A stretch of 64,000 bases of DNA from an uncultured Erysipelotrichaceae bacterium (GTDB lineage Bacteria; Bacillota_I; Bacilli_A; RFN20; CAG-826). The notes under the pieces were generated by a model. That model was given only the letters and a program-made list of their open reading frames with translations. It searched no databases and had not been told where the DNA came from. The position numbers and the translations under genes were made by a program. Positions within the stretch are counted from its first letter, which is position 1; every line of letters begins with the position of its first letter. Below are positions 26,300 to 38,893 of this stretch, one piece after another. The stretch is from positions 11,393-75,392 of the forward strand of contig CADCLZ010000001.1 of assembly GCA_902802365.1 (NCBI GenBank). The letters are read 5' to 3'.

Positions 26300-27062
26300 T
26301 CCCCCTCAAAATAGCGTCCGGTGGTTCTGCTTTTTCGGGCAGCATAGCCCTCTGCCGCGGGACGGACCAACGCCTGCATCTGTCGTCGGCTATCCGTTGA
26401 ACGGATCTCCGTCAAAGTCGGTCGACAACTGCGCGGCGGCCTGATCTTCTTTGAGCCGATTTCGGATGTGCTTCGCAATCTTCTTCATGTTCCTCCCGAC
26501 CGTTTCCACGTAGTGCCCTCTGCGCCGGAATTCTCGGTTCCGGCGCTTGAGCTTCGCGTTTCCCCGCTTCCGGCAGATCATCAGCGACGACTTTCCCTTC
26601 AGGCATCCCATTATCCCGGAAACCGGGAGTTTGGGCGGGGCCGAAATCAGCGTGTGCCCGTGGTCGGGGCGGACCTCCGCCTCGTGGATGGGATCCCCTT
26701 CCATTCGCAGAGCTTCCTGAGGATCGGGCCGATCTCCAGCCTCTTCAAACCCCTTCCTCCGGCATTTCGGGGTGGAGACGACGTGGCACTTACAGTTCCA
26801 GCACGCATGCGCTGAACTTAGGCTGTCGGATGAATTCGGCATGCGGCTCCTTTCAGATGGCGCGTTGGTCCGCCCCATCGTGATAGGAGCCTTTTTGCGG
26901 ATCAGGCAAAGCTGAAAGCTCAACCGAACTTCCAGACTATTGGGGAGTTTTCGCTTGCTGGATGCTCTGCATCGGCTCAGACAACAAAATCGCCGTCATG
27001 CAAAGACTGGACGCTCTTCTCCCTTTTATACACCTTAGCCGGCGGAAAATATCTTTTTGCTT
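26300..27062 (-). mobile_element. IS200/IS605-family insertion sequence (tnpA only), copy 1
   Basis: GC-rich (about 57%) block beginning right after the cupin stop. Contains tnpA. The left-end 210 bp recur at 30085-30293. Confidence 0.7.
26390..26842 (-). CDS. tnpA: IS200-type HUH (Y1) transposase TnpA
   Basis: From M28: MPNSSDSLSSAHACWNCKCHVVSTPKCRRKGF...DHGHTLIS (HuH)...GKSSLMI...RRGHYVETVGRN (catalytic Tyr). Collinear with IS608 TnpA, about 150 aa. Confidence 0.7.
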   Translation of the reverse strand: MPNSSDSLSSAHACWNCKCHVVSTPKCRRKGFEEAGDRPDPQEALRMEGDPIHEAEVRPDHGHTLISAPPKLPVSGIMGCLKGKSSLMICRKRGNAKLKRRNREFRRRGHYVETVGRNMKKIAKHIRNRLKEDQAAAQLSTDFDGDPFNG

Positions 27063-27160
27063 AACCTCTCACATCGTTGGTATGGGGTAAAATCTGTTTT
27101 ACGCTTCCCAAAACGCGATGAATCAAAGCAAACTTATTCCCTTTCCGCTACAATAAAATC

Positions 27161-29518: not shown

Positions 29519-29884
29519 ACCAGACCTCGTTATCTATGATAGGGTTCCGTTTTGCAACGAAAGCATTATAACAACATCTTTATTAAATGTTTGCTGCTTT
29601 AGCCGCCTTAACATTTTTTCGCGCTCGATAACGGGAAGATAAAACTTTTTCTAACCCCGATAACAAATAGGTCTGCCATTTTGGTCTAGTGGCATCAAAA
29701 CTGTACTAATTCACATGATGTGGCACCTTCCGGGAGAGAGACCATTGGGCGCCTAATCGCCCTGATCTCCTCCAAGAGCCTGATAGCCCCTTCAGCCTTG
29801 CTTCCATCGCGGCCGATTACGACCCATTACCTAAACTGGCGCATCTTTTACTGCCCGGATTGGTTATTTGCATGTTACCCTTAT

Positions 29885-30293
29885 CATTGGAGCACACCTG
29901 CGCCTCGTGGATGGGATCCCCTTCCACTCGCAGAGCTTACGGGGGTGACCCCTATCCCCGGCCTCTTCAGGCCGTTGAACCACTTCCTCCGGTGCTTCGG
30001 GGCGAAAACGACGTGGTGCTTACAGTCCCACCGGGTTTGGGCTAGACTTAGGTTGTCAGTCTTATCTGGCGTTTGGCTCCTTTCAGATGGCGCGTTGGTC
30101 CGCCCCATCGTGATAGGAGGCTTTTTGCGGAAGCTAAAAGCTCAATCGAGCTCCCAGACGATCGGGGAGTTTTCACTCGCTGGATGCTTTGCGTCGGCTC
30201 AGACAACAAAATCGCCGTCATGCAAAGACCGGACGCTCTTCTCCCTTTATACACCTTAGCCGAAGGAAAATATCTTTTTGCTTAGCCTCTTTG
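29885..30293 (-). mobile_element. Truncated IS200-family remnant, copy 2 (left end plus first about 60 tnpA codons)
   Basis: 30085-30293 matches 26856-27062 closely. 29893-30084 matches the tnpA 5' region of copy 1, with frameshifts (MGRTNAPSERS...WDCKHHVVFAPKHRRK). Same orientation as copy 1. Confidence 0.65.
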
Positions 30294-31554: not shown

Positions 31555-33069
31555 TCACGAATGATCGTTTCTGCCTTTAAGGTGATTGACTAGCGACAAA
31601 ACGTCACGAAGCAAACGTTCGTCCGTGATGAAAAGCATAATCTTTGTACGCGCTCGGGTGAGACCTTGATACAAAAGCTTGTCAAAGATGTAATCATGGC
31701 TTGGGTGTTCAACCGATCTTAAAACCCCATTCTCATAGCAAAAATGGTTGTCCATTATCATGCACACGCCATCAAATTCTTGTCCTATAACCGAATGGGT
31801 ATTCAATCTCCCTTTTTGATAATCTAGCGAAGAATCATAGAAAGATGCTGTATAGGAGATGTAGGTAAAGCCAAGAGGCTCAGCTGCTTTTGCCCTCTTA
31901 ACCGCTTCTTGGGCGTCTGGTTCGAAATAAATCTGAACATTTGGGAATGAAAACGAAGGCTTGAAATGGTGTTTATTCCGCAAACACGAAATAAACAAAT
32001 CAATCTCTTCGTTTGTACGGATGCATTTTCTCAAGTTCGCGTGGTATTGACCACACAAATCTTCAATCCGATCAACGGTGTTTCTTTTCTCTTCCGAATG
32101 AGACAACTTCTGCCCCGAATCGTAAGAAAAGACGCAAATGGCTTTGGTTTTCTTAACCCATCGCTCGATTTTATCAAGGTGGGATTCGTAGAGGCGATGA
32201 GATTCATCAACCATGATGACTTCCGCTGACCTAATTTCTCGGTATCCCAATGCCTTTGCGGGAACAACAAGAAGGTTTTCGGACATTGTATTTAAGCTGT
32301 TGTGTCCTTCGCAAAGGAGCCCGGAGTGAACGATCATCACTTTTATCCCTTGATTCGCTAGATCTTTGGCAATGTCGTAGAGCAACAGCGTCTTTCCAGT
32401 GCCAGGGCCGCCCGTGAGACGAAAAAACTTATCCGCTGGACCAGAAAGTGCGTAAGAAAGAATTTCGCTTTTGATGTTTTCTTGGTGTTCGGTCAAGAAA
32501 TATTTTCCTTCCCAAAAGTCTTTGGGCGCATTCAAAGGCGAAATCAAAACGTTGAATGGTGAAAGAACGGCATCCGAGTCGGTGGCGCAGGGAACAAAGT
32601 CGGCAAGTTTAATGATTTCGGTGCCGAAAGCCCCTTCCTCCAAGTTGTCACCAACCAACTTAAAAAACCGACGATTTGACGAAACGAAACAATACGAGCA
32701 AACGTTCTTCCCCAAAATCTTTAAGTAATGCCGATTTTCAGTCAATTGCTTTTTTATCTGTTGATCCGGAACCATCATGCTTTTTAACTCAATATTTAAA
32801 ATCGTTTCATCGGTGATTTTCAGCAGATCAAATTCTTTGCCTAAATTGGGGATGACGTATCCCATGATAAAGCCGGACGCGGAACGTTCGGACCAACCCC
32901 CTTCTTTCAAAAGGGCTTTGACATCGAGGATTTCATTATGCCGATAACTTCCTTTTCCACCCGTTAGATAAGGAATGTACTCTTCGCTTAGTTCCTTGTT
33001 ATCGGCAAGTTTTATGAGATCGAATAATGAAACCAATTTATTGTTCATCTGCTCGTCTCGCTTTCTCAT
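31555..33069 (-). CDS. DUF2075-type SF1-helicase-like P-loop NTPase with N-terminal PD-(D/E)xK (NERD-like) nuclease motif
   Basis: N-terminus: EFDLLKITDETILNIELK (D...ExK). Walker [14 protein letters not shown]. Walker B VIMVDESHRL. Motif VI-like YQGLTRARTKIMLF. Start 33069 or 33048. Either one overlaps the upstream RloB-like stop (33038). Confidence 0.6.
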   Translation of the reverse strand: MRKRDEQMNNKLVSLFDLIKLADNKELSEEYIPYLTGGKGSYRHNEILDVKALLKEGGWSERSASGFIMGYVIPNLGKEFDLLKITDETILNIELKSMMVPDQQIKKQLTENRHYLKILGKNVCSYCFVSSNRRFFKLVGDNLEEGAFGTEIIKLADFVPCATDSDAVLSPFNVLISPLNAPKDFWEGKYFLTEHQENIKSEILSYALSGPADKFFRLTGGPGTGKTLLLYDIAKDLANQGIKVMIVHSGLLCEGHNSLNTMSENLLVVPAKALGYREIRSAEVIMVDESHRLYESHLDKIERWVKKTKAICVFSYDSGQKLSHSEEKRNTVDRIEDLCGQYHANLRKCIRTNEEIDLFISCLRNKHHFKPSFSFPNVQIYFEPDAQEAVKRAKAAEPLGFTYISYTASFYDSSLDYQKGRLNTHSVIGQEFDGVCMIMDNHFCYENGVLRSVEHPSHDYIFDKLLYQGLTRARTKIMLFITDERLLRDVLSLVNHLKGRNDHS

Positions 33070-33634
33070 TTTTCATCGACGCGACCGCTTTATCCATCGT
33101 CAAAGCAAAATTCGCACGATTATATCCTTCTAGACACGCTTCAGTGGAATAACTCAATTTGCCCTTAATCCGTTCATTCTTCAGATAGGCTTTCTTCGTG
33201 TTTTTAAAGTACATCGCGCGGTCAACTTTGTTTGCTTCTGGGTGTGAAACCTCTAACACCTGCTCAATGTTTTTGGAGAAGGCCATCGGCAAAAAGCCAT
33301 TCTTTTTGCACCACCGAATGAGCGCCTCGTTCTTTGCCTTCTCCGCTTTGCCTTTTGAATCGACGTCAAAGCAAATGATCGGAACGATCTCAAATAACTC
33401 CTTGGGATAGAACTGCCTCTTGGCCCGTTCGATTGCTTTGGTGGTGCTGGAAGAGATAATGTTCCCTTTGCCTGCGACATGAAGGAAGACGCGCTTTGCC
33501 GGATAACCAGATGCTCCGCCATATTGGAAATAAAGCCCATAATATGCATCGATCAGCGCGCTTAAATAAACGTTGTCGGTTTTAGCAAGCGAGGTCGTCT
33601 CGCACACGATGATCAAAGCGAGGGCTTTATTCAT
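33038..33634 (-). CDS. RloB/AbiLii-like protein (TOPRIM-like)
   Basis: Start set at M52 of the track ORF (ATG 33634), which overlaps the ATPase stop as GATGAATAA. ALIIVCETTS...NVYL (IVCEGxxTE-like). PIICFDVD (VFDRD-like). MAFSKNIEQVLEVSHPE (SNpcFElWllLH-like). Confidence 0.55.
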   Translation of the reverse strand: MNKALALIIVCETTSLAKTDNVYLSALIDAYYGLYFQYGGASGYPAKRVFLHVAGKGNIISSSTTKAIERAKRQFYPKELFEIVPIICFDVDSKGKAEKAKNEALIRWCKKNGFLPMAFSKNIEQVLEVSHPEANKVDRAMYFKNTKKAYLKNERIKGKLSYSTEACLEGYNRANFALTMDKAVASMKNEKARRADEQ

Positions 33635-34982
33635 CCTTTTGCTCGTCTCCAAAGATCTCCGCGAATTGATATTCGCTGATATTAAATGGAATTCCCAAAA
33701 TGAATCCACCCAAATAAGGCCCTTTGGGATTCTTTCTGGCGCCCCTGCTCCAGGGCACAATGCCGTTTCCTTCCGTAAGGAAATCAATAGAGTTTCCGGT
33801 TTTATTCAGTGGATCCATGATTTCGACGTTATGGGTGGTCATGACAATTTGGGCATCGCTTGAGAAGAGGAAATACTCAATCAGGACCGTGATATAAACA
33901 TCGTGGATATCGGAATCGATTTCATCAATGAAGACGATAGATCCCCGCGCGGCGGCCAAAAAGGCGTAGAAAAGCCTGGTGAGCTTTTTAATGCCTGTCG
34001 ACTCGAATTCATAATCCACTCTGAAGCCGCTTTGATAGCCATAAGTTAAATTGACGACAAGCGTGTCAACATCTTCTTTATAAGAGGGCTCAACCCGGAT
34101 GAGGCCCGGCTTCATAATTTTCAAAAAAGCAGCCAATTTTCCCAAAGAAGATTCAAAGGTCTTCTTTTCGGTTTTTTCGATAATGTCGAAGCAATCCCTA
34201 TGAAAGCTCTTTGTCATACCCTTTCTTTGCCGGTTGGTCATCCATCTTTGCAAGATTCCCAATCGTTGCTGCTCGTTTTTCTTATTTCGATCCATGAGCA
34301 GCTCCATCATTTTCTGAACGGCGAAGGATTCGTGGCTATCAGAGGTTTCACCGAAGAAGACAGAGATATTGGACGCACACAAAAATGCCTGAGCCAAAGT
34401 CATCAAGGAAGGAACGGGATCCTTCTCAATCGCCTTTTTGGCAAAAAGGTCCATCAGTAAAGAACCAGACAAAGTGTGTTTTGTAAAATCAACTTTGCTT
34501 TGATTCGCAAAGGATACAAAATCCGGCTTCCCGATGAATTCACCATTCCTCTGCCCGGCCAAGATATCGGACTCTTCCTTTTTGCTCAAACCGAAAATTT
34601 CCTCTTCGAAAATCCTTAAAGACCCGAATTCGTCGTACCCGATTTTCAGGGAATGGCTGAGGAATTTGTCTGGTTCGTCAGATTTACGACGAATCCGATA
34701 GGTCATCTGAATCGAGAGGCTCTTTCGGTTTTTGTTGATGAGCCTCGTTAAAATCGAGACGGTGGGCGAATCGTCCAAACTCGTTTCGTTTTTGGCGAGG
34801 CGGGCGTAGAAATCCGCTGCCAAAACAATTCCCGTTTTACCCACGCCATTGGCGCCATAAATCGCTTTGATCAATCCTTTGGTTTCTTTTTTCGTTGATC
34901 TGGGGTTGTCAAACTTAAGAGTGATATCCTCTTTGATGCTTTTGATTCCGCCGACGGACATGGACAATAATGTGATTCTCAT
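33627..34982 (-). CDS. ABC/OLD-family (AAA_15/AAA_21-type) ATPase lacking a TOPRIM domain; AbiLi/RloA-like
   Basis: N-terminus: MRITLLSMSVGGIKSIKE...AIYGANGVGKTGIV (Walker A). C-terminus: SIVFIDEIDSDIHD (Walker B/D-loop) and VMTTHN (H-loop). First gene of the operon. Confidence 0.7.
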   Translation of the reverse strand: MRITLLSMSVGGIKSIKEDITLKFDNPRSTKKETKGLIKAIYGANGVGKTGIVLAADFYARLAKNETSLDDSPTVSILTRLINKNRKSLSIQMTYRIRRKSDEPDKFLSHSLKIGYDEFGSLRIFEEEIFGLSKKEESDILAGQRNGEFIGKPDFVSFANQSKVDFTKHTLSGSLLMDLFAKKAIEKDPVPSLMTLAQAFLCASNISVFFGETSDSHESFAVQKMMELLMDRNKKNEQQRLGILQRWMTNRQRKGMTKSFHRDCFDIIEKTEKKTFESSLGKLAAFLKIMKPGLIRVEPSYKEDVDTLVVNLTYGYQSGFRVDYEFESTGIKKLTRLFYAFLAAARGSIVFIDEIDSDIHDVYITVLIEYFLFSSDAQIVMTTHNVEIMDPLNKTGNSIDFLTEGNGIVPWSRGARKNPKGPYLGGFILGIPFNISEYQFAEIFGDEQKDE

Positions 34983-34996
34983 AAATTTACATAAAA

Positions 34997-35051
34997 GTGA
35001 AATTTTTCACTTATTTGTTTATACTATATCACCATTCTATTTGTCTTTAAA
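34997..35051 (-). promoter_or_regulatory. Putative promoter (-35 TTTAAA, 17 nt, TGa-TATAGT) with perfect palindrome GTGAAATTTTTCAC in the leader
   Basis: Minus-strand reading: TTTAAA (35051-35046), extended -10 TGATATAGT (35031-35023). Palindrome at 34997-35010 lies between the -10 and ATG 34982. No obvious Shine-Dalgarno. Confidence 0.3.
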
Positions 35052-35578
35052 AGATTCAAATGAGTCCTCTATAATTAAATAGATTTTTAAAATGCTTTTT
35101 GGGCTGCTTTTTTGAAACAGGAAGCGAAAATTCGTGTTTTCATTTTTATTTCGGATGAGAAAGAGAAGATACATCCTTTAATTTTCGTAGAAGCTGGCCA
35201 AAAGTTCCGGGCAACCTAGGTTGGCATCTTCCATGGCTGCAAAAAGACCACGGAAGAATGCGGATGCTCAAGGGATGATTAGGCTAGTTTGAAAACATTC
35301 TCCGACTGCTTTTCAAAAAACACCTAATGGAAATGCGGCGTTTTTCAGATCAATCGCGTTTTTTATTTCTCTACCGTGATTTTTATGACAATAGAGCATG
35401 CAGCCCTTCTGAAATGAATAGTCAAAATCGAGGGTAAACGAAAAAATAAAAGGCGGCTAAGCCGTCTTCTACCGCGCGGGATAACCCCGGGCCCATAAAT
35501 ATCATATCACTTTTTAGAAGCGCGACTCATAAAACTGGCTTGTCGTGAAAAAGGTGCGATTTTCCACATCTTCAGGTT

Positions 35579-36301: not shown

Positions 36302-36966
36302 TGTTTCTTCTCCACCACCACATTGGTCGATTTGACGATGCTGTTATTGGGATAGACGCCTCTAGTCATCGTCAAGGGATAGACTTGGGTGTTTTGGCCA
36401 ATGATGGTCCCTGGATTCAAAACGGAGTTGCAGCCGATATCAGCATGATCGCCCAAAAAAGAGCCGACCTTGCGGATTCCCGTATTAATGTCTTCCTCGC
36501 CGTGGATGACGACGGGTTTGCCGTCGCTTCTAAGGTTGGAGCAGATGCTTCCTGCGCCCATATGGGCGTAATTCCCAAGGATCGAATCGCCAACATAGTT
36601 ATAATGCGGGGCTTGGCAGTGACTTAGCAAAACCGCATTCTTGAATTCTGATGAATTGCCCAGCACGCATTGATCCCCGATCAAAACCAAACCGCGGATG
36701 AAACATCCGGGTCGGATTTCAACGTTGTTGCCGATGATGGCCGGCCCGATGATCGTCGCCGTGTCGGCGATCATCACGGTTTGACCAATAAGCGCATCAT
36801 CCTTAAGTTTCGTATAACCGGGGAGGCCTTTTTCAATCAAAGATTGAATATAAGGCTTAATAAGGGGTAGCAACTCCCAAGGATATTCTTTGGAGAAGAT
36901 GAAAGAGTCGATGTGCTCGATTCCGGAAGGGTGGAAAAGGCTCTTATTGGTGATCTTCATAGGCAT
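36298..36966 (-). CDS. Left-handed beta-helix (hexapeptide repeat) protein, GlmU C-terminal/acyltransferase-like
   Basis: Repeats IGPAIIGNNVEIRPGCFIRGLVLIGDQCVLG...IGCNSVLNPGTIIG. Translationally coupled between glmM-like and nagB. Confidence 0.5.
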   Translation of the reverse strand: MPMKITNKSLFHPSGIEHIDSFIFSKEYPWELLPLIKPYIQSLIEKGLPGYTKLKDDALIGQTVMIADTATIIGPAIIGNNVEIRPGCFIRGLVLIGDQCVLGNSSEFKNAVLLSHCQAPHYNYVGDSILGNYAHMGAGSICSNLRSDGKPVVIHGEEDINTGIRKVGSFLGDHADIGCNSVLNPGTIIGQNTQVYPLTMTRGVYPNNSIVKSTNVVVEKKQ

Positions 36967-38590
36967 AACCTTTTCTCTGGATCAGGCGATATATAGTTTC
37001 GATGTGGCGGTCGCATTCTTCCAAATCATCGCTTTCCGCCATGATGCGGACGACGGGTTCGGTCCCGGATTCCCTTAGAAGGATCCTGCCGCTTCCATTC
37101 ATTTGCTTATTGATCTTCTCCGCCAAAGAAAGCACGGCTTCATCTTCCATCACCGCTTTTTTGTCCACGACGGGGACGTTCTTCAAAACCTGCGGATATA
37201 AGTGGACCGGCGCGCCAAGCTTGGCCAAGGAAGATTTTTGGTCAATCATCTCTTCCAAAAGCTTGATCGCGGTCAAAACGCCATCGCCCGTCGTCGCGTA
37301 TTTGCGGATGATGATGTGCCCCGATTGCTCGCCGCCGAGCCAAAAATCGTTCTTCATCATTTCCTCGTAAACGAAACGGTCGCCGACTTTGGTTTGCTTG
37401 TTTTGGATGCCCTCTTCTTGGAAGGCTTTTGCCAAACCGGAGTTCGACATAACCGTGGACACCACCATATCGTGCTTCAATTCGCCGTGCCGTCTCAGCC
37501 TCTTCGCGAGGATATAAAGGATCTTGTCGCCGTCCACCACTTCGCCGTTCTCATCGACGGCTAAGCAACGATCGGCGTCGCCATCAAAGGCAAAACCAAC
37601 ATCAAGATGCTGTTCTTTCACCAACCTTTGAAGATTTCCGATATGGGTGGAACCGCAGTCTTTGTTGGTGTTGAGCCCATCCGGATGATCGCCGATCACA
37701 TGGAGCTCCGCCCCCAAAGCGGAGAAGACGGAGCGGGCGATGTACCAGGATGCCCCATTGGCGCAATCAAGGCCGATCCTTAAGCCGCGGAAAGAGGTGA
37801 TGGAGCAAGAGATGAGATAGCCGATATAACGGTTCCTTCCGGCAACGTGGTCCACCACCTTGCCGATTTTTGCTCTTTTCGCATAAGGGAGGTCGTTTTC
37901 TTTTTCCAAACCCAAAGCGGGAAGGTCGCCATCCAAATAGCATTCGATCAAATGGGTGATGCGCTCTTCCATTTTCTCACCGCAGGCATTCAAGACCTTG
38001 ATGCCGTTATCATAGAAGATGTTATGGGAAGCGGTGATCATAACCCCACAGTCAAAGTTCTCGGTCCTGGTGACATAAGAAACCGACGGGGTGGTTGTGA
38101 CGTGAAGGATATAGGCATCCGCCCCTGATGCCGCAATGCCGGCGCAAAGCGCGTATTCCAACATATAAGAGCTTCTTCTGGTGTCTTTGCCGATGCAGAT
38201 CTTCGCCCGCGCTTCGTTCGGCCTTTTGGAGGCGAATTGGGGGCTGGAGAAATACCAGCCCAGGAACCGGCCTATTTTAAACGCATGCTCAGCGGTGAGG
38301 ACTTGGTTGGACTCCCCGCGGAAGCCGTCGGTTCCAAAATAATGGTTTTCCGCGTTTTGCGGTTCGGCTTTGTTTTGGTAGGTATTCAAAACAACGGATT
38401 CATCAATCAGTTCATTCGCGTTGATGCGAAACAAATCGCAGATCGCGGCGATCTTGTCTAACTGCGGATAGCTTTCGCCTTTTTCCCACTTGGAGACCGA
38501 TTGGCGGGAAACGCGGAGACGCACCGCCAATTGGGTTTGGGATAAGCCGGCGCTTTTCCTTAGGTGAATGATTTTCTCGGAAATGGTCAT
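36944..38590 (-). CDS. glmM: XRE-family HTH domain fused to phosphoglucosamine mutase
   Basis: N-terminus: IIHLRKSAGLSQTQLAVRLRVSRQSVSKWEKGESYP (Cro/C1 HTH). Then GTDGFRGESN, ITASHNIFYDNGIKV (active-site Ser loop). C-terminal PGM/PMM domains. Start taken at MTISEK (38590). Confidence 0.8.
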   Translation of the reverse strand: MTISEKIIHLRKSAGLSQTQLAVRLRVSRQSVSKWEKGESYPQLDKIAAICDLFRINANELIDESVVLNTYQNKAEPQNAENHYFGTDGFRGESNQVLTAEHAFKIGRFLGWYFSSPQFASKRPNEARAKICIGKDTRRSSYMLEYALCAGIAASGADAYILHVTTTPSVSYVTRTENFDCGVMITASHNIFYDNGIKVLNACGEKMEERITHLIECYLDGDLPALGLEKENDLPYAKRAKIGKVVDHVAGRNRYIGYLISCSITSFRGLRIGLDCANGASWYIARSVFSALGAELHVIGDHPDGLNTNKDCGSTHIGNLQRLVKEQHLDVGFAFDGDADRCLAVDENGEVVDGDKILYILAKRLRRHGELKHDMVVSTVMSNSGLAKAFQEEGIQNKQTKVGDRFVYEEMMKNDFWLGGEQSGHIIIRKYATTGDGVLTAIKLLEEMIDQKSSLAKLGAPVHLYPQVLKNVPVVDKKAVMEDEAVLSLAEKINKQMNGSGRILLRESGTEPVVRIMAESDDLEECDRHIETIYRLIQRKGYAYEDHQ

Positions 38591-38893
38591 TGATATTGCA
38601 ACTAACGGTTGCTTTTTTAGAAAGAAGGCCACTATTTGCCTTTTTCGCGCTTATTGTACCCGCCTATTATGGTTGCGAAAACAAAAAACAAATTCTTTTT
38701 TCCTTCCATTATGCCGCCGAAAATCTCTCTCGAGGCCAAATCAAGCTCCGAGGCTTTCTTTTTTTGGTCTTCGTCTGCAGCGCGAACTGACGAAAATTCA
38801 TCGTATCTCGAAGGCCAAAAAGCGACAAAGAAGGTTTACAATGTAATACTGTATTGATGGGGTTGCCCATCATATGTTCATAAGGAGAAAATC

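Follow-up and report, generated by a model that had tools for sequence, protein, structure and literature searches.

An AbiLi-like ATPase gene paired with a gene for a putative TOPRIM nuclease of an unannotated family in an uncultured Erysipelotrichaceae bacterium

In a 64,000-nucleotide (nt) stretch of DNA from an uncultured Erysipelotrichaceae bacterium (contig CADCLZ010000001.1; this whole stretch is referred to as the window), we found two adjacent genes, here designated A and B, that probably (at roughly 0.75) form a two-gene anti-phage module of the kind that combines an ATP-binding cassette (ABC) ATPase with a TOPRIM nuclease, as in AbiL, PARIS, and MADS3-4. Gene A encodes an ABC ATPase with intact catalytic motifs that most resembles AbiLi, and gene B encodes a small protein with the residue layout of a TOPRIM domain. 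The two genes are strictly syntenic in related genomes, and in the window they lie in a small defence island. The general type of module is already known; what is new here is an AbiL-like ATPase with a TOPRIM partner from an unannotated lineage. A preliminary description, made from the sequence alone, had presented the locus as an AbiL/RloAB-like pair, and our analysis supports that interpretation as a whole, apart from the membership of B in RloB/AbiLii.

The two genes were both found on the minus strand, and their layout is as follows.

33627–34982, minus strand: gene A, encoding a 451-amino acid (aa) ABC ATPase (SMC/Rad50-head type, AAA_21), AbiLi-like and without a TOPRIM domain
33038–33634, minus strand: gene B, encoding a 198-aa TOPRIM-like putative nuclease of a rare, unannotated family
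33627–33634, minus strand: stop/start overlap between A and B, 8 nt, ATGAATAA

The coordinates given earlier for both open reading frames (ORFs) and the overlap of exactly 8 nt were reproduced, whereas the length of 199 aa assigned to the second protein had included the stop codon: the span from the ATG at 33634 to the stop at 33038 comprises 198 aa plus stop. The sequence motifs quoted for A (GANGVGKT, IVFIDEIDSD, and MTTHN) are all located at verified codons, and those quoted for B (LIIVCETTS, ICFDVD, and MAFSKNIEQVLEVSH) are present in both the translation and the family alignment. In this alignment, the family homologues start 3 to 10 residues ahead of the first beta strand that they share with B, which identifies the ATG at 33634 as the true start of B. 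The only upstream in-frame start, a TTG at 33787, was rejected, as no homologue has anything equivalent to the 51 residues by which it would lengthen B. A start of B elsewhere had been named as an outcome that would undo the proposed coupling of the two genes, and the homologue alignment instead backs the ATG at 33634 and hence the overlap.

The assignment of A rests on four ABC ATPase motifs, all of them intact, and on a conserved tail. Residue conservation of A refers to an alignment of 36 homologues.

34833–34856, minus strand: Walker A, GANGVGKT (residues 43–50), with G43, N45, G46, G48, and K49 invariant
33993–34004, minus strand: ABC signature-like ESTG (residues 327–330), with E327, S328, and G330 invariant
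33909–33938, minus strand: Walker B and D-loop, IVFIDEIDSD (residues 349–358), with D353, E354, and D356 invariant
33828–33845, minus strand: H-loop, VMTTHN (residues 380–385), with T382 and H384 invariant; MTTHN occupies 33828–33842
33630–33800, minus strand: conserved C-terminal tail of A (approximately residues 395–451), the last codons of which contain the Shine-Dalgarno (SD)-like GGAG for gene B

Among the 32 matches of A in PADLOC, AbiLi (PDLC02335) was the best, with an E value of 3e-30; further matches were to AriA (2.6e-14), mad3 (6e-10), PDC-M12A, NsnB, HEC-01A, ATPase-Toprim, and PtuA. A search of Pfam returned AAA_21 (6.4e-13) above the cut-off and SMC_N below threshold, and searches of NCBIfam and of Protein Data Bank (PDB) sequences gave no match for A. 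The AlphaFold2 model of A had a mean predicted local distance difference test score (pLDDT) of 76.9 and a predicted template modelling score (pTM) of 0.81, and Foldseek aligned it with Rad50, with the heads of SMC, cohesin, and condensin proteins, and with the Septu and retron PtuA ATPases, at E values of 1e-11 to 1e-9. A is thus an ABC ATPase of the SMC/Rad50-head type and, by its AbiLi and AAA_21 matches, of the AbiLi type (AAA_21/AAA_15). Neither Pfam nor the AlphaFold2 model nor Foldseek revealed a TOPRIM domain in A, which consists of an ABC head and a tail of approximately 55 residues and then ends. The earlier reading of A as an ABC/OLD ATPase core devoid of TOPRIM is therefore confirmed. 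Proteins of OLD classes 1–3 carry ATPase and TOPRIM on one polypeptide; here the TOPRIM-like domain is encoded by the separate gene B. In the tail of A, residues W411, G415, P419, Y423, G426, and PFN432–434 are invariant or at least 90% conserved, and residues 414–435 have a pLDDT below 50. This combination of conservation and poor modelling is what a segment that folds only upon binding a partner typically shows, and the tail may be such a segment.

The pairing of A with B is conserved. The protein database yielded 12 matches for relatives of A, and every relative for which the contig was inspected was followed by a gene for a 160- to 169-aa protein without Pfam domains. A scan of one genome per species then gave approximately 40 full-length relatives of A, mostly in metagenome-assembled genomes (MAGs) of Lachnospiraceae, other Clostridia, Bacilli, and Erysipelotrichaceae from guts and rumens, and also in Fusobacterium. 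The downstream ORF belonged to the B family in all 30 of the related loci that were extracted (hmmsearch, 1e-27 to 5e-54); outside these 30, five related loci had no downstream ORF that reached 110 aa, and three had an ORF that was not put to the family search. With the window pair included, 30 of 31 A–B junctions lay between –20 and +6 nt, with a median of –1, and the two genes overlapped in 16 of the 31. An SD-like motif (GGAG, GAGG, or GGGG) preceded the partner ATG by 7 to 17 nt in 25 of 29 pairs, and this motif is encoded by the conserved C-terminal F-G-(G/D/E)-E codons of the ATPase. The A–B arrangement is not a chance one. Given that the junctions are tight and that the SD-like motif is present in 25 of 29 pairs, co-translation of A and B from one mRNA is well supported. 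The preliminary description had read the overlap as evidence of both coupled translation and fixed stoichiometry; the first of these is in line with the junctions and SD-like motifs, whereas the second goes beyond junctions that range from –20 to +6 nt and mostly possess an SD-like motif of their own.

Gene B was less readily classified. It had no match at an E value of 0.1 or below in Pfam, PADLOC, NCBIfam, or PHROGs, a search of PDB sequences gave nothing relevant, and a word-indexed search of 5.8 billion proteins returned only B itself. An exhaustive HMMER search of 1.84 billion representative sequences identified 37 relatives of B at an E value of 1e-3 or below, and the family is therefore rare. 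The family alignment was enlarged to 61 sequences for counts of residue conservation, and the following predicted catalytic positions stand out.

33599–33601, minus strand: E12 of B, predicted TOPRIM glutamate at the end of strand 1 (residues 4–11), present in 58 of 61 sequences
33359–33367, minus strand: D90-V-D92 of B, predicted TOPRIM DxD at the end of strand 3 (residues 81–91), each Asp present in 61 of 61 sequences
33263–33265, minus strand: E124 of B, invariant acidic residue (61 of 61) just after strand 4 (residues 115–120), in the helix at residues 123–126

Other conserved residues of B are D20 (59/61), Y23 (60/61), K136 (59/61), and N175 (59/61). With the family alignment as input, AlphaFold2 gave a model of B with a pLDDT of 93.3 and a pTM of 0.88. 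Its elements follow the order b1-a1-b2-a2-b3-a3-b4 (strand 4–11, helix 19–37, strand 47–52, helix 62–72, strand 81–91, helix 96–111, strand 115–120) and precede a helical C-terminal part; by this order of elements, the model contains the alpha/beta core of four strands alternating with helices that defines TOPRIM, together with the Glu after strand 1 (E12) and the DxD after strand 3 (D90 and D92). Given the positions of E12 after strand 1, of the DxD at the end of strand 3, and of E124 after strand 4, the layout is that of a TOPRIM domain. The same pattern is found in RloB, DUF4276, RNase M5, and OLD nucleases, with RloB and DUF4276 belonging to the TOPRIM superfamily (PMC12065111).

Searches with the family as a whole pointed in the same direction. 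For the family consensus, Toprim was the top Pfam match, at a sub-threshold E value of 0.017, and PADLOC gave no match. Single members had weak matches to Toprim (0.0038), RloB (0.034), RT-Toprim, and HEC-01B. The member from Fusobacterium vincentii, which belongs to the B family according to both hhalign (99.1%, E value of 9e-19) and hmmsearch (3e-27), matched RT-Toprim at 2.7e-6, AbiLii at 1.2e-5, OLD-like_TOPRIM at 1.6e-4 (22.6 bits versus a cut-off of 23.2), and RloB at 2.5e-3. Among predicted viral structures (BFVD), the top Foldseek match of the B model was annotated as 'RloB-like protein' (probability of 0.99, E value of 9e-4, template modelling (TM) score of 0.40). A comparison of the family profile with PDB sequences found no TOPRIM match; this negative result carries little weight because the profiles of true RloB proteins and of the c3 class described below also found no TOPRIM structure. 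B is very likely a TOPRIM protein on these grounds, and the lack of any RloB/TOPRIM-like fold, which the preliminary description had put forward as a way in which its proposal could fail, did not materialize: a TOPRIM-like fold with an E...DxD...E arrangement is predicted. In the closest relative, from a 'Bacilli bacterium' MAG (locus L005:3007-3592 in our numbering; ATPase 48% identical), the N-terminal coding region of the partner is frameshifted, and the protein was called from approximately residue 33, past the catalytic glutamate, consistent with either a pseudogene or an assembly error.

The relation of B to RloB is distant. True RloB controls scored 1e-18 to 1e-38 against the RloB model, whereas only two of 36 members of the B family reached that model, at 0.034. 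In hhalign comparisons of the B family with true RloB, which did not reach significance, the motifs aligned in the expected order. The earlier designation of B as RloB-like therefore holds for the fold and for the order of the motifs; it does not hold for family membership, given that B fails the RloB (PF13707) and AbiLii models. B is accordingly not the AbiLii/RloB (PF13707) partner that characterizes AbiL, and neither B nor any of 36 family members matched DUF4435 or AriB, the partner type of PARIS (OLD class 4).

The distant AAA_21 relatives of A provide a frame for this result. In loci from Pseudomonas, Chloroflexota, Actinomycetes, Lachnospira, and Bacteroidales, the partner at the same position is a true RloB (PF13707 at 1e-18 to 4e-38; AbiLii at 1e-17 to 8e-20). 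In others, it is a 220- to 260-aa protein of a class that we designated c3, with the motifs VEGxSD, DTDG, and NLEHVL; its hosts include Akkermansia, Collinsella, Halanaerobium, Lachnospiraceae, and others (loci L055–L093, among them L055:3143-3856, L089:6597-7379, and L069:6429-7166). The c3 class had no match in Pfam or PADLOC. It is the closest relative of the B family by profile comparison (hhalign, 95.8%, E value of 7e-9, full length), and its similarity to RloB is marginal (E value of 0.0016). The c3 class looks like another unannotated family of TOPRIM effectors. The partners of AbiLi-like ATPases thus fall into at least three diverged TOPRIM-like lineages, two of them unannotated, and B is a member of one of these two. 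In addition, an AbiLi-like ATPase gene (AbiLi at 5e-43) on the Enterococcus faecalis plasmid NZ_CP090559.1 (L013:3200-5158) is followed after 3 nt by a gene for a 195-aa protein. This protein was examined as a possible relative of B and proved unrelated (hhalign, 0.9%); it had only faint matches to GajA and mad4 and represents yet another partner type.

Both AbiL of Lactococcus lactis, which consists of AbiLi and the RloB-type TOPRIM protein AbiLii, and PARIS, which consists of the ABC ATPase AriA and the DUF4435 TOPRIM nuclease AriB, have been grouped together as ABC ATPase plus TOPRIM systems (PMC11464382, PMC13064643). The window pair shares with AbiL the adjacent, co-directional two-gene operon, the best match of A to AbiLi, and a small partner with the E...DxD...E pattern, but its partner does not match AbiLii/RloB, has ET rather than EG after strand 1, and has a longer loop before TDxxY. 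With rloA/rloB of type I restriction-modification (R-M) loci (Campylobacter type; PF13707) it shares the combination of an ATPase with a small TOPRIM-like protein, whereas it lies outside an R-M locus and B is below PF13707 detection. It shares with PARIS the split ATPase/TOPRIM logic and the match of A to AriA (2.6e-14), but B is in size far below the 35 kDa of AriB (PMC11464382) and has no DUF4435 match, and A is nearer to AbiLi than to AriA. The c3 proteins occupy the same position after an AAA_21 ATPase but are longer, with an insertion of approximately 50 residues after the DxD strand and with EG and EH motifs. Finally, the model of A aligns with the PtuA structures of Septu and retron systems at approximately 1e-10, and PADLOC also returned PtuA, although the partner of PtuA is the HNH nuclease PtuB, not a TOPRIM protein. 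The split-OLD arrangement that the preliminary description had likened to AbiL and rloA/rloB is upheld by the AbiLi-like ATPase, the two-gene layout, and a Fusobacterium pair inside a type I R-M locus, with the caveat that B falls outside RloB/AbiLii.

The surroundings of the pair include two further candidate defence genes and a promoter-like site.

31555–33048 or 31555–33069, minus strand: gene C, full-length Nhi/AbiO-type PD-(D/E)xK nuclease plus superfamily 1 helicase, 497 or 504 aa
30388–31482, minus strand: gene D, candidate stand-alone defence gene of unknown family, 364 aa
35023–35051, minus strand: candidate promoter-like site, TTTAAA, 17-nt spacer, and TG-TATAGT, approximately 40 nt upstream of the ATG of A (consensus scan)

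C begins within the 3' end of B, with an overlap of 11 or 32 nt according to the ATG chosen, and it matches AbiO (1.6e-127) and Nhi (1.2e-121) of PADLOC end to end. D had no match in Pfam, PADLOC, NCBIfam, PHROGs, or PDB sequences. Its homologues (35 to 43% identity), annotated as 'hypothetical protein', are encoded by solitary genes on plasmids of Stenotrophomonas, Vibrio, Pseudoalteromonas, and Legionella, where they adjoin type I-F cas genes or genes for SLATT, McrBC, and mobile mystery proteins; judged from these neighbours, D is a candidate for an unknown single-gene defence protein. Given that neither C nor D was found with the pair outside the species of the window, they are island neighbours rather than components. 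C was considered as part of the A–B system and rejected for this reason; no locus from another organism had it beside the pair.

A, B, C, and D form a small four-gene defence island flanked on one side by amino-sugar genes (nagB and a helix-turn-helix-fused glmM) and on the other by a cell-wall polysaccharide cluster; neither this island nor the overlap of C with B was mentioned in the preliminary description. The glmM-like gene (36944–38632, minus strand) encodes an unusual fusion of a phosphoglucosamine mutase-type protein (PGM_PMM domains I–IV) with an N-terminal XRE-type helix-turn-helix. The interval of approximately 600 nt between nagB and gene A (34983–35578) contains no ORF of at least 50 aa; its features are a hairpin resembling a terminator, which follows nagB, and the candidate promoter of A. 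The number of promoter-like sites in the region did not exceed the shuffle expectation, so the site at 35023–35051 is a candidate only. No Rfam family match was found in this interval, and Rfam and tRNA scans of the whole window found no RNA genes. A search for direct repeats that might bound the island as attachment (att) sites gave only a remnant of an IS200-like insertion sequence (IS). A gene for an IS200-type Y1 transposase lies 3.2 kb from this remnant, and its 5' end and upstream region share 81 to 92% identity with approximately 400 nt at 29889–30290. Of the two IS200-like copies (29884–30290 and 26390–27069), the one adjoining gene D is reduced to a TnpA-like N-terminal ORF of 74 aa. 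Given this similarity and the truncated TnpA ORF, the sequence is a degenerate IS remnant at the low-coordinate edge of the island.

In relatives, the settings of the pair are typical for defence genes. The homologous pair lies between hsdS and hsdR in Fusobacterium vincentii, after genes for an MmeI-type R-M enzyme and a HEPN protein in another relative, next to a nucleotidyltransferase toxin-antitoxin pair in a further one, and, on a viral contig, alongside genes for a serine recombinase and a repressor. A location inside a type I R-M cluster, as for rloA/rloB, was found only for the Fusobacterium homologue and not for the window pair.

Several results weigh against the assignment of the pair to ABC ATPase plus TOPRIM nuclease defence. 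B itself matched none of the RloB (PF13707), AbiLii, Toprim, and DUF4435 models (for AbiLii and RloB, at an E value of up to 1), and hhalign comparison of its family with five true RloB proteins was not significant (E values of 0.05 to 0.07, probability of approximately 1%). B lacks the W and the H of the RloB motif FEyWLLLH, and its chemistry could therefore differ. The TM score of the BFVD match was only 0.40, and no TOPRIM match of B in the PDB reached significance with Foldseek, which returned only generic alpha/beta folds at E values above 0.01. Defence, toxicity, complex formation, and nuclease activity of the B family are predictions by analogy. The generic folds in the PDB and the sub-threshold evidence for TOPRIM from hidden Markov models would also suit a B that is not a nuclease but a TOPRIM-shaped or generic Rossmann-like adaptor or nucleotide-binding regulator, with the pair serving in DNA repair or chromosome handling in the manner of RecF-RecR; RecR is a TOPRIM protein that works with RecF. 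We consider such a role improbable, given that the E, the DxD, the second E, and a lysine hardly vary among 61 diverged sequences, that the occurrence of the family in gut Firmicutes and Fusobacterium is rare and patchy, and that its neighbourhoods are variable and of the defence type rather than conserved housekeeping operons.

An accessory role in restriction-modification would make the pair a true equivalent of rloA/rloB, one that guards or backs up a type I R-M system, for example by detecting anti-restriction proteins in the manner of PARIS, and not a free-standing abortive system. The positions of the pair in Fusobacterium vincentii and after the MmeI-type gene fit this idea, as does the triggering of PARIS by the anti-restriction protein Ocr (PMC11464382). 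No R-M gene was recognized beside the window pair, however, its neighbours being nagB, the Nhi/AbiO gene, and a gene of unknown family, and among the related loci a tblastn search with Fusobacterium HsdR and HsdS matched only Fusobacterium loci; this role is therefore unlikely. The overlap of C with B, and the common direction of A, B, and C, which are probably co-transcribed, could also suggest a single three-component system in which the helicase-nuclease C is the real effector. C nevertheless matches single-gene systems over its full length, and its homologues were confined to loci from the species of the window, none of approximately 90 other fetched loci having one, whereas the A–B pairing was universal. 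A three-component system is thus highly improbable.

We therefore favour a two-gene ATPase and TOPRIM nuclease module, for which PARIS and published pairs of AAA antitoxins and TOPRIM toxins suggest a mode of action. In PARIS, AriA is a sensor scaffold that releases AriB, a TOPRIM nuclease that cleaves tRNA-Lys (PMC11464382), and AAA proteins neutralize TOPRIM toxins in toxin-antitoxin tests (PMC10440598). By analogy, A and B would be produced from one transcript, with the ribosome-binding site of B embedded in the last codons of A, and would form a complex. A, as an oligomerizing ATPase with an SMC/Rad50 head, would serve as both sensor and keeper, and B would be a small metal-dependent TOPRIM nuclease acting as the toxic effector. 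A would hold B inactive, possibly through its conserved and poorly ordered C-terminal tail, until a phage cue induced an ATP-dependent rearrangement of A that released or activated B. Active B would then cut nucleic acid, either tRNA or DNA, with the result that infection would be halted and the cell lost. More tentatively, the B family and c3 could together represent an unannotated lineage of TOPRIM effectors that has replaced RloB beside AbiLi-like ATPases in gut and rumen Firmicutes, Fusobacterium, Akkermansia, and Collinsella; such a lineage may have its own substrate or trigger, and the tail of A may tether the nuclease.

The known principle of an ATPase sensor combined with a nuclease effector is unchanged by these results, the value of which lies mainly in annotation and comparative mechanism. 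Annotators that demand AbiLi and AbiLii together, such as PADLOC, probably miss the window locus because B matches no PADLOC or Pfam model. Recognition of the B family and c3 would widen the catalogue of ABC ATPase/TOPRIM systems in gut and rumen bacteria, and the B family would offer compact TOPRIM effectors of approximately 170 to 200 aa for mechanistic comparison with AriB of PARIS and with AbiLii.

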